64,000 nt of DNA from a virus: the IMG/VR virus record IMGVR_UViG_3300044878_000051, positions 1 through 64,000 of that record, one strand, 5' to 3'. Each line of letters opens with the position of its first letter. Positions within the stretch are counted from its first letter, which is position 1. A program made the position numbers and the translations under genes. Under the pieces are notes generated by a model. The model was given only the letters and a program-made list of their open reading frames with translations, had not been told where the DNA came from and did not search any database. This document shows positions 4,335 through 64,000 of the stretch, in pieces.

Positions 4335-5837
4335 TTACTTGTCCCTCCTAGCAATGATGCCTGTGGCACCCACGGTGAAGAAACGACGTGACTGATCACG
4401 CTTACCTTTGTTAATCAGATCCCACAGCCAATCCTTCGGAATCAACTGACCCCCGATGACGGGAATGTTGTCCACCCGAGGGTAGAGTGTACGGATCAAT
4501 TCGATCGCAAAAGGCGGGTCCTTACGAATCCGGTCAATGGCTTCTTTGGTCAAGATACTCAAGTCCGTCACCAGACACAGACGCAAGTGTTGCACGTCAC
4601 GCAGAGTCAGGTCATACGAACTACGGACATTCAAGTCAGCATCCATCAACACCGTTTTATCCGGCATCGGTTTGTCCCAACGGTACAGTTGGAAGTTGAA
4701 CACCGACTGGGTGTACTTACTGATGAACGGGGCTTCCTTAATGAGGAAGTGTAACGTCGCAGGAGAGAACTCGAAGTCACCGAGGTTACTCAGGTTCACC
4801 ATGTCACGCGGATCGTTTTCATCCACACCCAACAGTAGTTCCAACACCGGGGCGGTACGGGGTGGAGTCCAGTTCGGCATCCAATCGTCAATCGCGGGAA
4901 TCCGATTGCGGGCCAACGGTTGTACACGCTCCTTATACAGTCGAGTGTAGTAGTCCATCAGGAAGCGTTCGTTAGACGGACGACGTGCACGGTTAGCCAG
5001 TTCGTAAACCGGGACAGTAGGACGGAACCGCTCATCCACCATCTGGTTGTGAATAGCCACAGGGTAGTGAGCCATTACAGCGACCACCTTGTCGTACATG
5101 AAGGTGTAGTCGAATCCTGTTTCCCATGGGGCCCCTTCGCCAGCCTTCGAACCTTTGTCGGGTTGAGCCACGAAGTTAAAGCCGCCTACGATGCTCGCCT
5201 GACGTTCTGCGATCGCCAACAGGGGTTGGGTTCCTGCTTGCGTCCGAAGCGTTGTAGCGCGTCCTGAGATGTGTTCCTGCACCCATTGCTCTAGCGTCTC
5301 ACCGTAACCTGCGACTGCTTCACGCATTTCGTAGATTTGGTGGAGGATCAGAGCAATGGAGTCCGGGATTGGGTAATGGTAGTCGATCTCGTGTAACAGT
5401 TCTGCACGCCCTTGTGAGGAACGTACCCGGAACTCGTCTCGCCACTTCTCTGCTTGGGTTCTGTCCTGAGCACGGTAACGGAACGAGATAGTTACTTCAC
5501 AAGAAACGTAGACAGGCTTAACGAACACATCGAGGCGTTGGTCGTAGAAGACGAACTGAACGTTGTCTTTCTTTACCGCTGAGGTCAGCGTACGGTCTTC
5601 GATGTACTGCTCGTCAGCTTCGATGTTGATGCGACCATTGAACGGGAACTTGTTCTGGATGCCGTTATCAGTCAGTGTGGTTTGAGGTTGGAATTGAGAC
5701 TCGGCCATGCCGAAGAACTCAAAGCCAGTGTCATGCGGAAGACGCATGATCTCAATCAACTGTTTCGCTACCTGAGTAATGGCTGGGCGCGTAATCGAGC
5801 TATACGTTTCTGGAAGTTCAACAACGATGTTAGGCAT
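4335..5837 (-). CDS. Virion structural protein (phiKZ gp98-like)
   Basis: ~500 aa ORF; start MPNIVVELP follows a GGAG RBS; synteny. Confidence 0.6.
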   Translation of the reverse strand: MPNIVVELPETYSSITRPAITQVAKQLIEIMRLPHDTGFEFFGMAESQFQPQTTLTDNGIQNKFPFNGRINIEADEQYIEDRTLTSAVKKDNVQFVFYDQRLDVFVKPVYVSCEVTISFRYRAQDRTQAEKWRDEFRVRSSQGRAELLHEIDYHYPIPDSIALILHQIYEMREAVAGYGETLEQWVQEHISGRATTLRTQAGTQPLLAIAERQASIVGGFNFVAQPDKGSKAGEGAPWETGFDYTFMYDKVVAVMAHYPVAIHNQMVDERFRPTVPVYELANRARRPSNERFLMDYYTRLYKERVQPLARNRIPAIDDWMPNWTPPRTAPVLELLLGVDENDPRDMVNLSNLGDFEFSPATLHFLIKEAPFISKYTQSVFNFQLYRWDKPMPDKTVLMDADLNVRSSYDLTLRDVQHLRLCLVTDLSILTKEAIDRIRKDPPFAIELIRTLYPRVDNIPVIGGQLIPKDWLWDLINKGKRDQSRRFFTVGATGIIARRDK

Positions 5838-60784: not shown

Positions 60785-61201
60785 TCAGATATAAGACTCA
60801 ACCAAGACGTTCCCACCGATCCATTGACGGGTCAAGCGGTAGCCGAAGCTTGGGGTTTTGAAGTACTGACTGGTCATGTCTGAGATCAGCATGTGGATCT
60901 CGAGCGCAAGGTTCGTCAGGTTGTGCAAGGCGATGGCTTCATCGTCACTCAGTTCGCTGGGGTCTGATTGCCCCTTGACATTACACAGGAAGTGATCCTC
61001 TATAATGCCCATCACAGTCCACGTCTTATCGTACCGGATGTGGAGGTCAGTGATGCTGAAGGAGAGTTCGGCTAACCCTTTAAGGCTCACCTGATGCTCC
61101 AACAGATAGGGTTCCAGATGCCAGTAGTCCCGGAGGATTCGACTCACCGGGATCAGGATGGGATTAGAACGCACCACTTTTAAATCGCTCATGATAGTCA
61201 C
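60785..61201 (-). CDS. Hypothetical protein, array member 6
   Basis: 138 aa ORF. Confidence 0.7.
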   Translation of the reverse strand: MTIMSDLKVVRSNPILIPVSRILRDYWHLEPYLLEHQVSLKGLAELSFSITDLHIRYDKTWTVMGIIEDHFLCNVKGQSDPSELSDDEAIALHNLTNLALEIHMLISDMTSQYFKTPSFGYRLTRQWIGGNVLVESYI

Positions 61202-61213
61202 TCACTCGAGTGC

Positions 61214-61585
61214 TTAGCAGCGGATTAGATCTACGTAATGCCCGTGGTTAGGATTCACCCGGAGATCGAAGTCGTAGTTCCCGTGTTTGAGGATCGGCTT
61301 CAGGTAACGGGCTACCGCTATCTGGGCACGGATGTAGTTCTCCTCGTATGCCATCAGTTGTGCTTTGTGAACCATGAAGTACGCGTACTCCATCTCCGTC
61401 AGGTGCTGCACCAAGAAGTCGTCCATGGAGCAGATCACGCTGGCCTCGTAATCCAAGGGGTCTCGTGTGAGTTCCCCGTAGAGCACGTTGTTGAAGAACT
61501 CGTCTCGATCCACCCCGAGCTGGTCCAGGATGTCCTTATCCACAGGGGGCAATAAGGTATCCCGGATGTACAAACGCATGGACAT
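61214..61585 (-). CDS. Hypothetical protein, array member 5
   Basis: 123 aa ORF. Confidence 0.7.
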   Translation of the reverse strand: MSMRLYIRDTLLPPVDKDILDQLGVDRDEFFNNVLYGELTRDPLDYEASVICSMDDFLVQHLTEMEYAYFMVHKAQLMAYEENYIRAQIAVARYLKPILKHGNYDFDLRVNPNHGHYVDLIRC

Positions 61586-61586
61586 G

Positions 61587-62081
61587 TCAGACTCCTAGAT
61601 ATTCTCGCAAGCCTGATGCTACCCAGTCACCGTTCTCCAAACTGCTCTCGACGTCCTTCCTCAGGAGGTCGATGTGGTTCTGGGGGTTGTGTGGGCGACA
61701 CCGTGCCAATTGCAACAGCTTGATGTCACCTCGAGGCGTCAGGTCAAAGTGCCAACTCCAATCGTCAGCATTCTCTTTGATCATTCGCCAGATGTAACGT
61801 TTGATGAAATCAATAGCTTCTTCAACCATGTCCTCAACTTCTGCCTGAGGAATCTTGTCGGAGTAGCTACGGATCTGATTCACCACAATCTCGCGGGCTG
61901 CAATCACGTTGCCGTAAAAGCAGTTCTCCACAGTACCAGAGAGAATCCCTATCAGGTTCAGGTAGTTAGCGCCGATGCCCAAGTATGGACGTAGGCGGCC
62001 TTCTAGCTGCTTAATGATGGGAGTCCCAGGTATGACGTATGTCGCCGCGAGCGTAATGCCAATCCCAAATTCGGTAGTCAC
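61587..62081 (-). CDS. Hypothetical protein, array member 4
   Basis: 164 aa ORF, GTG start with GGAG, overlaps upstream gene by 71 nt. Confidence 0.65.
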   Translation of the reverse strand: MTTEFGIGITLAATYVIPGTPIIKQLEGRLRPYLGIGANYLNLIGILSGTVENCFYGNVIAAREIVVNQIRSYSDKIPQAEVEDMVEEAIDFIKRYIWRMIKENADDWSWHFDLTPRGDIKLLQLARCRPHNPQNHIDLLRKDVESSLENGDWVASGLREYLGV

Positions 62082-62550
62082 CTTTGAACTCCAACATCAA
62101 GTTATTGCCTAGGGGCTTGATCGCACAGACTTTCCACGTAGGTTCAGTCAGCAACTTCTGCATGATCTGGTTCACACCGCCTGCGATTGGATCGAGGACT
62201 TGGTTATCCAGTTCAGAGAAGAAACCATCACCATCATTCTGGTACTGTCTCCCCACGGTCTGTTCGTAGCCGGGCATCAGTCGTGCCAGTGCTCCAGCGA
62301 TAAACCCTACTTCAAAGAATTCACGAGGGTAGTTGCCAAATACACGCGACAGCTTCCGATCGTGCTTTTCCAGCTCGTACCAGTTGAACCATTGTTGCAG
62401 TTCCCGGCAGACAATTGCTTGTGCCAACAGCCGACACTTATTGACGGTGATGTTAGCCACCATCTCAGGATGGCCGATGTTTACCAAGAAGTTATCAAAA
62501 TGATACTTCAAGCTTAGCGCTGTAGCATCAACAGGGAATAGGAAATTCAT
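62011..62550 (-). CDS. Hypothetical protein, array member 3
   Basis: 179 aa ORF. Confidence 0.7.
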   Translation of the reverse strand: MNFLFPVDATALSLKYHFDNFLVNIGHPEMVANITVNKCRLLAQAIVCRELQQWFNWYELEKHDRKLSRVFGNYPREFFEVGFIAGALARLMPGYEQTVGRQYQNDGDGFFSELDNQVLDPIAGGVNQIMQKLLTEPTWKVCAIKPLGNNLMLEFKGDYRIWDWHYARGDIRHTWDSHH

Positions 62551-62560
62551 GAGGCAGCCT

Positions 62561-62917
62561 TTAAAGGTACAGATACAAACCCGTGGGTCTGATCATCAAC
62601 GTCAATTCACCTTCTGGGATCAAGTGGTGGTTACACGCCTTGATCTTCCGGTAAAGCTGGGTGCGTAACAAGTTTTGCTTGTCAATCAGGTGGATTAGTT
62701 TGTACACGTCAGTGTGAGCTTGATCCTCTCGGAACACTAACAACAACGTGCTTTCGATGCAGTCTTTCAACCACGTCGTCTCAATCATGATCATCAGGTA
62801 CTGAATGTCGTACAGCCCTAATAGATGTTGAAACTGCGGGGTACTCAGTGCATCCCGTATCTCACAGTGGAGCATCACCTGTAAGTTACGGTAGTCAGTC
62901 ACCAATTGAATATCCAT
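62561..62917 (-). CDS. Hypothetical protein, paralog of 62928-63284
   Basis: 118 aa, ends IRPTGLYLYL. Confidence 0.8.
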   Translation of the reverse strand: MDIQLVTDYRNLQVMLHCEIRDALSTPQFQHLLGLYDIQYLMIMIETTWLKDCIESTLLLVFREDQAHTDVYKLIHLIDKQNLLRTQLYRKIKACNHHLIPEGELTLMIRPTGLYLYL

Positions 62918-62927
62918 CGGTGTCTCC

Positions 62928-63284
62928 TTAACTGTACAGGTACAAACCTGTGGGACGTATATAAAGGATGAGGTTCTCGTTGAACTTTCTAGGGATCAAG
63001 AGTTTCGCTATGCGGTTACGCAGAACGTGGTCTCGATCTAGGAAGCACAACACCCCATGAAGTACAGTGACAAAGTGTGACGGGTATTGTTGCTGAACTA
63101 TCCTACCAGTCAACTCTTCCACAGTCTCCCTTAGCCAAAGGTATTCAATCAACCCAACCAATTCCTCGTAGTCTCCGAAGGCTTGTGTCAGGTACTGAAA
63201 CTTGAGCATCCCCAAGGCTACATCTATATCGTCTCGCAGGTGTACTTGAATCTGGCGAAACCCTATAACGAATTGGAGCCGCAT
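62928..63284 (-). CDS. Hypothetical protein, paralog of 62561-62917
   Basis: 118 aa, ends IRPTGLYLYS. Confidence 0.8.
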   Translation of the reverse strand: MRLQFVIGFRQIQVHLRDDIDVALGMLKFQYLTQAFGDYEELVGLIEYLWLRETVEELTGRIVQQQYPSHFVTVLHGVLCFLDRDHVLRNRIAKLLIPRKFNENLILYIRPTGLYLYS

Positions 63285-63308
63285 GGTTCTAACCTTTCTG
63301 AAGGTTTG

Positions 63309-63336
63309 TTCAATTGGATAATATAGGTCTCAAACT
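63309..63336 (-). promoter_or_regulatory. Early promoter
   Basis: TTTGAGACC-TATATTAT-N5-TGAA. Confidence 0.8.
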
Positions 63337-63421: not shown

Positions 63422-63468
63422 GACGGCATAAAGCCCAACCACCCTCAGTTGGACTGGGCTTTATGTTT
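63422..63468 (-). terminator. Terminator with TTTATGCCGT tail (possibly bidirectional)
   Basis: CATAAAGCCCA/TGGGCTTTATG stem. Confidence 0.85.
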
Positions 63469-64000
63469 TACGCTGGCTTCGGTCGGCTATCCGTGAGTGG
63501 AGTCAGGTCCCCTCTCGGCCAACCTAGTGGGGTCGGAGTAGCCAGGCATGTTTTCCCACCGAGTACCCCTGACGGCACAAGGATTGCGGCTAGAACTTAC
63601 GCACCCCTCCAATTGCCCGGCTCGGCTGGTAAAGGTAGGATTCCAATGCGTAAGCGAAGTGCCGAAACACTTCCCCAAGACTATTCAGATCGAACCCGGC
63701 CTAGGCACATCCGAATACTCTTGAGGCTGCGTTCAAGCGTAGGCCCCAACCACTATAGGTGCAGAGGGGGCGGGCTATCGTACAACTTGAACCCTTCGCG
63801 GGGGTCCCGTACCCTTTGCCTTACCGGTCGAGTGCGAGTCAACTTTATAGGGCTTCCTGTAGTACGTCTGCTTATCCAGGGTGAGGTTGCAAACGCCCAA
63901 CCCTTGCCGGGCTGAGATACGTGACCCCTCGGGTTCAACCGAGCAGCGACGATTTAAGACCCCCGAACCCACCGGCTCTCTGGACAGAGTAGTCACTAGG
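63425..64000 (-). ncRNA. Putative large structured non-coding RNA (5' end beyond window)
   Basis: No credible ORF; at least 7 contiguous helices; most G-U pairs and a UUCG loop favour the minus strand; ends at a terminator. Confidence 0.65.

Follow-up and report, generated by a model that had tools for sequence, protein, structure and literature searches.

What is encoded by the long noncoding stretch at one end of a 64-kb piece of an uncultured phage genome? The window analyzed here is the whole 64,000 nucleotides of DNA under study, the first 64 kb of a 94 kb IMG/VR record that CheckV rates as 34% complete. This record encodes chimallin (phrog_4795, 5e-112), split RNA polymerase beta subunits, and two DNA polymerases; it thus belongs to a nucleus-forming phage, and the chimallin and split polymerase genes bear out what an initial annotation of the window had proposed. 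Among cultured phages the best chimallin match is Xanthomonas phage LucasX, only 31% identical, and the record is accordingly distant from cultured phages. From comparative analysis we conclude that the stretch holds the gene for a large, elaborately folded noncoding RNA, transcribed from the minus strand and belonging to an uncatalogued family. Its layout, established from the same alignments, comprises two 5' domains conserved in sequence, fast-evolving paired helices, an arm tipped with GGCC, and a terminal hairpin.

Extent, Strand, and Coding Status

The noncoding run spans positions 63425 to approximately 64268 of the record, and the RNA reads on the minus strand from approximately 64264 to the terminal hairpin, a length of about 837 nt. 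The window contains only its 3' portion of some 570 nt, the last two-thirds, and the size of about 540 nt given in the initial annotation proved too short once the full record was read rightwards past the window end. That the stretch is noncoding and densely paired was confirmed, with pairing in excess of chance. The statement that it has no protein-like open reading frame (ORF) needs amendment: two ORFs exist, one of 150 aa on the plus strand (63463-63915) and one of 73 aa on the minus strand, yet no homologue retains either of them. Most indels that separate the homologues measure 1-2 nt and would shift a reading frame. Over the full 851 nt, the minus strand folds with a better energy (MFE) than shuffled controls do (z = -2.81), whereas the plus strand does not (z = -0.60). 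In the alignments read as minus strand, G·U pairs occupy 161 cells versus 26 for A·C mismatches; the transcribed strand is therefore the minus one, that of the tRNAs, as the initial annotation had preferred.

Homologues and Their Long and Short Forms

Eight homologues were found, all in contigs of uncultured chimalliviruses, which gives nine sequences with the window. The flanking nuclease, used as a lead, gave two IMG/VR contigs; conserved 19-21-mers gave two further IMG/VR contigs and two metagenome contigs; and blast of chimallin-related records (70% amino-acid identity) added two more genomes, one of them complete with terminal repeats. Five sequences are long forms of 836-842 nt (the window, L003, L022, L024, and L026) and four are short forms of 642-656 nt (L004, L025, L034, and L035), in which a small GC hairpin replaces one internal module and the 3' domain of about 190 nt is missing. 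The 5' domains A and B display 74-88% identity where chimallin DNA displays 74-77%, and the middle helices are approximately 50% identical with their pairing nonetheless kept; judged from these alignments, this is the conservation profile of a structured RNA. The 5' domains of the window are 87.6% identical to those of L004 (chimallin DNA 77%) and only 80-81% identical to those of L003 and L022 (chimallin DNA 92%). In the middle arm, by contrast, L022 goes with L024 and the window with L003 (alignment A4). Evolution of the RNA gene is mosaic, and we regard recombination within it as likely. The family is small, nine sequences in about three subclades, and kinship inflates the shuffle statistics.

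Searches beyond these genomes set the limits of the family. With the RNA as query, blastn found nothing similar among 50,697 cultured phage records, and a scan of IMG/VR with conserved 20-mers led to contigs already known and no others; the same scan of metagenomes returned two new members and one chance match (L027). Two 20-mer matches in 185,579 prokaryote genomes were rejected as chance by a model built on domain B (R1). This model finds exactly one copy in each of three genomes (G000, G002, and G003) and no match in the cultured chimalliviruses LucasX, RTH11, Xoo-sp14, RAY, and Eowyn; it found none in G001 either, a genome only 65% complete that ends near the expected site. The chimallin alignment as query gave nothing new, the patterns used being of low complexity. 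The range of the RNA family is so far a single clade of uncultured nucleus-forming jumbo phages. Among the sequencing runs listed as containing it, none was an RNA run, and the best was a sediment metagenome, possibly the source; relatives were also seen in wastewater, compost, plant, and soil runs. In two wastewater runs labelled RNA-Seq there are 3.7-kb contigs of a relative that has the RNA next to a tRNA, the nuclease gene being absent; the depth of these contigs is similar to that in the same study's DNA run, contigs cannot show ends, and they are uninformative on expression.

Domain Structure and Covariation

The features of the locus are collected in table 1. Four segments were modelled, together comprising 141 base pairs, 62 of them with compensatory changes, and 84-98% of cells are paired. 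Domain A (alignment A7) has 31 pairs, 98.3% of cells paired, and 7 compensatory pairs versus 0 in register-shifted (slid) controls. The corresponding figures are 39 pairs, 96.2%, and 15 versus 0-3 for domain B (A6); 39 pairs, 89.6%, and 24 versus 2-7 for the middle domain (A8); and 32 pairs, 83.7%, and 16 versus 3-10 for the long-arm domain (A9). Every slid control falls far below the real register. Since the structures of A8 and A9 come from the very alignments that were counted, and the nine sequences are related, the numbers overstate independence; nevertheless, the contrast with slid registers is large and consistent. The closing helix of domain B covaries between UACCCUC/GAGGGUA and UGCUUUC/GAAAGCA or AGCUUUC/GAAAGCU, and the inner helix of the long-form insert between CCCCCGA/UCGGGGG and CCCCUGA/UCAGGGG; at the site of this insert, short forms have a different GC-rich hairpin. 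The 3' domain is approximately 95% identical among long forms and has five compensatory pairs, exemplified by CUUACGCA/UGCGUAAG versus CGUACGCA/UGCGUACG and by GUGCC/GGUAC versus GCGCC/GGCGC.

Table 1. Position of the RNA, its domains, and the neighbouring genes and motifs (coordinates from the window unless record or L002 is given; record 64750-70050 = L002 4750-10050)
Feature	Coordinates	Strand	Remarks
Syntenic small-gene array	60785-63284		118, 118, 179, 164, 123, 138 aa; follows the RNA in all relatives
Early-type promoter-like motif (..uuugagaccuAUAUUAUcc..)	63304-63330	minus	just downstream of the RNA
ATATTAC/T motif sites, window	7875, 21491, 26093, 28144, 54898, 63324	minus
ATATTAC/T motif sites, record	record 70040, 70559, 79335, 79765	minus
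TTATGCC motif	63425-63431	minus	directly behind the 3' hairpin; contains TATG; conserved in 9/9 sequences
Terminal GC-rich hairpin	63430-63462	minus	presumed 3' end/terminator of the transcript of RNA and tRNA island
3' domain, long forms only	63463-63651	minus	~190 nt; window, L003, L022, L024, L026
Long-arm domain	63652-63788	minus	~16-bp helix 63676-90/63709-23 extended by further pairs; hairpin 63656-61/63668-73
GGCC	63698-63701	minus	caps the long covarying arm; invariant in 9/9
Multi-hairpin middle domain	63782-63923	minus	GGACCC/GGGUUC hairpin, conserved GCGAA-containing loop; invariant CUCGCA loop
Long-form-specific insert	63924-64000, on to record 64022	minus	cut by the window end
Domain B	record 64023-64151	minus	most conserved multi-branch core, closed by UACCCUC/GAGGGUA
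Domain A	record 64151-64264	minus	four-way junction, 7-bp P1 GUGAGCG/CGCUCAC; RNA 5' end (inferred)
Secreted SNase-family nuclease gene	record 64269-64748 (L002 4269-4748)	minus	159 aa; Pfam PF00565, 2.8e-11
tRNA-like stretch with insert	L002 ~5100-5250		uncalled by ARAGORN
Kelch-repeat protein gene	L002 5672-6580	minus	among island tRNAs
Tad2-like anti-Thoeris domain protein gene	L002 7375-8205	minus	among island tRNAs
Rfam-only tRNA in island	L002 8850-8929	minus

Five of the six local helices drawn in the initial annotation were recovered in the comparative fold with compensatory changes (63596-603/63647-54, 63656-61/63668-73, 63676-90/63709-23, 63780-94/63802-12, and the hairpin 63878-904). 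The sixth, 63502-07/63568-73, is indeed complementary (GUCAGG/CCUGAC) but clashes with two local hairpins, one of which covaries (GUGCC/GGUAC, GCGCC/GGCGC, CGCU/AGCG), and could at most be a loop-loop contact. A long-range match, CCUAGUG/CACUAGG, had been read as a pseudoknot or switch. Its complementarity is real and extends to 9 bp, formed by AACCUAGUG in the long-form insert and CACUAGGUU in the 3' domain, yet the proposed pseudoknot or switch is without covariation support: the match is unchanged in four long forms, L024 breaks three of its nine pairs, and short forms lack it. Docking of these two long-form-only modules through the match is possible but unproven. Further long-range pairings can be drawn in long forms, where the 5' P1 strand GUGAGYG (record 64255-64261) could pair with CACUCAC in the 63488-63494 region (alifold) and UUUCCCRCU with GGUGGGAAA. 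Both may represent an alternative fold or chance, without covariation to decide; a search for covariation in the GUGAGYG/CACUCAC pairing found none.

Comparison with Known RNAs

No match to the RNA was found with Rfam 15 (4227 models) at the gathering score, in the window and in 18 kb around the site, and cmscan at E<=10 gave just two chance-level matches (E~1-2), outside or at the edge of the RNA. This negative covers group I/II introns, RNase P RNA, OLE, HEARO, aptamers and riboswitches, and self-cleaving families; RF01998, a group II intron fragment model, gave no match either. Direct searches of G000, G002, and G003 with the ROOL (RF03087) and GOLLD (RF02032) models found nothing at E<=10. 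Neither search had a control genome above the cut-off, for which reason the ROOL result is weak. Within the RNA, ARAGORN and Rfam detect no tRNA or tmRNA; tRNAs occur outside it only. Given strong covariation across nine sequences and the absence of an Rfam match, the initial description of a large structured noncoding RNA of no recognized class, without tmRNA, RNase P, tRNA, or group I/II intron signature, is supported. Domain A, considered as a tRNA-like element, was rejected, having an 8-10-nt linker, a third hairpin of 6-7 bp, and no T-loop sequence. A full-text literature search yielded no description of such an RNA, and a 2026 jumbo-phage review says on noncoding RNA merely that phiKZ expresses some.

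Among RNAs of comparable size, OLE (RF01071), a cellular RNA of extremophilic Bacillota with dedicated protein partners, is likewise highly structured (about 600 nt) and interspersed with invariant nucleotides; it differs in that its model finds no match here and in the phage tRNA-island setting of our RNA. The tRNA cluster of phage T4 includes stable non-tRNA RNAs of unknown function, species 1 and 2 (~120-140 nt), which are co-transcribed with the tRNAs and cut out by tRNA-processing enzymes; the present RNA is 5-7 times larger and far more elaborate. ROOL and GOLLD, on the other hand, are phage RNAs near tRNA islands that self-assemble into RNA-only cages, their function being unknown (PMC12286853). 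GOLLD is phage-encoded, exceeds 800 nt in many members, and combines an ornate multi-domain fold and a tRNA-island setting with one conserved and one variable half; GOLLD env-38 lies downstream of a tRNA (PMC12286853). However, the 3' region of GOLLD is universally conserved and the 5' region less so (PMC12286853), whereas here the 5' domains A and B are conserved in all nine sequences and the ~190 nt at the 3' side are optional. Besides the lack of a model match, the virus here is a nucleus-forming jumbo phage, and self-assembly has not been shown for its RNA. ROOL, which is ~580 nt long and lies near tRNA islands in phages or prophages, with a complex fold and no known protein partner (PMC12286853), is similar in size to our short form; yet its model finds no match, no shared motifs were recognized, and oligomerization of the RNA described here is inferred at most. 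Encoded by a chimallivirus record as the last unit of a tRNA island, the RNA does share the setting of both families, and likeness to them is limited to size and setting only.

The RNA within a tRNA Island

In every genome examined, a co-oriented tRNA island has the RNA as its last unit; the RNA is not the stand-alone one that had initially been envisaged. To its right, the minus strand carries six tRNAs called by ARAGORN and one by Rfam only, in an array from record 64832; the island also has long noncoding spacers. In L026, L034, and L035, from which the SNase gene is absent, just 3-8 nt separate the start of the RNA from the ACCA end of tRNA-Leu(UAA). The window, L003, L004, and L025 carry the nuclease gene as an insertion at this point, with its stop codon directly against the same ACCAGAA lead-in. 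This gene is an insertion polymorphism exactly between tRNA-Leu(UAA) and the RNA, with ACCAGAA kept on the RNA side. The LucasX region after tRNA-Leu(UAA) was considered as an analogue and set aside: its fold reaches a z of only -1.76, there is no homology, and no analogue is shown there. That region (MW825358.1 135992-137144; L065 15995-17144) holds tRNA-Leu(UAA), then two small hypothetical CDSs, as well as ~635 nt of unannotated DNA with a T-arm-like hairpin.

At the other end of the RNA, the stem of the terminal hairpin reads AAAGCCCAG.../...UUGGGCUUU in the window versus AAGCCCCUUGCUGG/CCGGUGAGGGGCUU in L003, L022, L024, and L026, with pairing kept, and short forms have a different, long covarying hairpin in its place. 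The phage-type terminator annotated here survives in part: hairpin and TTATGCC are real and recurrent, but TTATGCC is probably a promoter motif and not the terminator's tail. The record has 22 copies of TTATGCC, at least 17 of them directly behind a GC-rich hairpin between genes. In phiKZ, TATG is the late-promoter consensus of the nvRNAP, with G as the start (PMC4666361). Given this consensus, the module of hairpin and TTATGCC resembles a terminator coupled to a signal for restarting; by analogy, TTATGCC would probably be a TATG late-promoter motif behind a terminator hairpin, its promoter role being inferred. Such modules occur on both strands (e.g. window 5877, 7915, 20801/20842, 34332/34369, 58859, and 63431), several of them back to back, as bidirectional units.

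A different motif, ATATTAC/T, is preceded by an extended AT-rich consensus and followed by a gtgaata-like box. All 13 of its occurrences are on the minus strand and none is on the plus strand; we take it to resemble phiKZ early promoters. Its copies at record 70559 and 70040 lie upstream of the tRNA island, and none was found between 70040 and the RNA, which is therefore without such a motif of its own. The copy at 63324, promoter-like only, would serve the downstream array of small genes. That a single transcription unit of ~6.6 kb has the RNA at its end, and that processing of tRNA ends sets the RNA free, are both inferred, and neither has been shown.

Proposed Role and Alternatives

Why should a phage place such an RNA at the end of its tRNA island? 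We think it probable, though with considerable doubt, that it is a stable trans-acting RNA scaffold derived from a tRNA precursor, and so a third kind of giant ornate phage RNA; this function is an inference. The RNA would be co-transcribed with the tRNA island, starting at an early-type promoter some 6.6 kb upstream; trimming of tRNA 3' ends by host enzymes would release its 5' end, and the terminator hairpin would protect its 3' end. It would then accumulate as a stable folded particle and act in trans as a scaffold, most likely (by analogy with ROOL and GOLLD) through self-association with the GGCC tip as a candidate contact, and also or instead through binding of tRNA- or translation-related partners. 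In the absence of transcript data, the ends, abundance, processing, expression, function, and self-assembly of the RNA are all inferred. In seven of the nine sequences, GGCC lies within perfect palindromes of 6-12 nt (GUCUGGCCAGAC, UGUGGCCACA, AGUGGCCACU, CGGCCG). It is compatible with a tetraloop hairpin as well as with self-complementary contact of two RNA copies, which is a hint only; a 4-nt loop is small for a kissing contact, and GGCC could alternatively be a plain stable tetraloop or a protein site. A farther-reaching version of the scaffold, a third, unrelated class restricted to a single clade of nucleus-forming jumbo phages, which self-assembles through its GGCC tips into an RNA-only multimer and either handles island tRNAs and their mimics (caging, ferrying, or shielding them) or blunts RNA-targeting defence, is speculative and, in our estimate, rather unlikely.

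Other readings of the locus have to be weighed against a trans-acting scaffold. Since a Tad2-like anti-Thoeris sponge, a Kelch-repeat protein, and a secreted nuclease are encoded in the same island, and the mosaic locus evolves fast, gaining and losing modules, the RNA could itself be an anti-defence decoy or sponge, the RNA cargo of an island directed against defences, that soaks up or misleads an RNA- or tRNA-targeting host defence (anticodon nucleases, RNases) or an immune signal; phage tRNAs are indeed thought to counter tRNA cleavage (review PMC13282480). Such a role stays open, but we hold it to be unlikely: neighbouring genes alone are weak evidence, no tRNA-like element was detected inside the RNA, and no known aptamer or riboswitch family matches it. 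Little weight, in turn, can be given to a cis-acting tail that stabilizes the precursor, guides its processing, or insulates units. The fixed position at the island 3' end, directly before the terminator hairpin and without a promoter-like motif of its own, would suit it, yet a simple hairpin is enough for 3' protection, 640-840 nt with two conserved multi-branch domains and invariant loops far exceed the need, and the RNA is retained irrespective of whether its upstream neighbour is a tRNA or a protein gene.

Multi-junction cores that are both large and conserved are characteristic of ribozymes, and a setting among RNAs that need processing could accommodate a phage-specific processing enzyme for island tRNAs or tRNA-like elements, or else a self-cleaving unit; without a match to RNase P, group I/II introns, or self-cleaving families, with no interrupted gene and one copy per genome, we find this highly improbable. 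It would be equally surprising if the RNA turned out to be a GOLLD or ROOL member so divergent that the Rfam models miss it. It has size class, phage origin, and a tRNA-island setting in common with them, but cmscan and the family searches of three genomes gave no match at E<=10 (with no positive control above the cut-off), and the conserved half of GOLLD is the 3' one where here it is 5'. The notion that there is no RNA gene at all, and that the region codes for protein, serves as a DNA-level element (origin, packaging site), or folds by chance, can practically be dismissed. Its one support, the 150-aa plus-strand ORF, is broken in every homologue, and strand-asymmetric G·U pairs and compensatory changes, which show selection on RNA pairing, contradict it.

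Few RNAs of bacteria and phages exceed 500 nt and also have a conserved, ornate fold. The known large ornate RNAs (ribosomal RNAs, RNase P, group I/II introns, OLE, ROOL, and GOLLD) do sophisticated chemistry or build unexpected RNA-only assemblies. If the present one is a third unrelated giant RNA, association with phage tRNA islands would be a recurring solution and no mere peculiarity of two families, and cryo-EM would gain a new object. It is also the first such giant RNA linked to nucleus-forming phages, where RNA must cross a protein shell, and the idea of RNA trafficking can therefore be put to the test. For structure-function work, the long and short forms found in nature already provide a set of deletion variants.

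Genes Downstream of the RNA

PHROGs and Pfam found nothing in the small-gene array that follows the RNA, and the 118-aa protein on the left flank has no relatives in IMG/VR. A confident fold is predicted for the downstream 118-aa protein (pLDDT 87.6), a helical bundle with a small sheet. It has no PDB match, and the search with this predicted structure gave no hint of RNA binding. The fold bears a weak likeness (TM 0.5-0.6) to uncharacterized chimallivirus proteins of RP12, PhiPA3 (gp038/039), Goslar, and Psa21.
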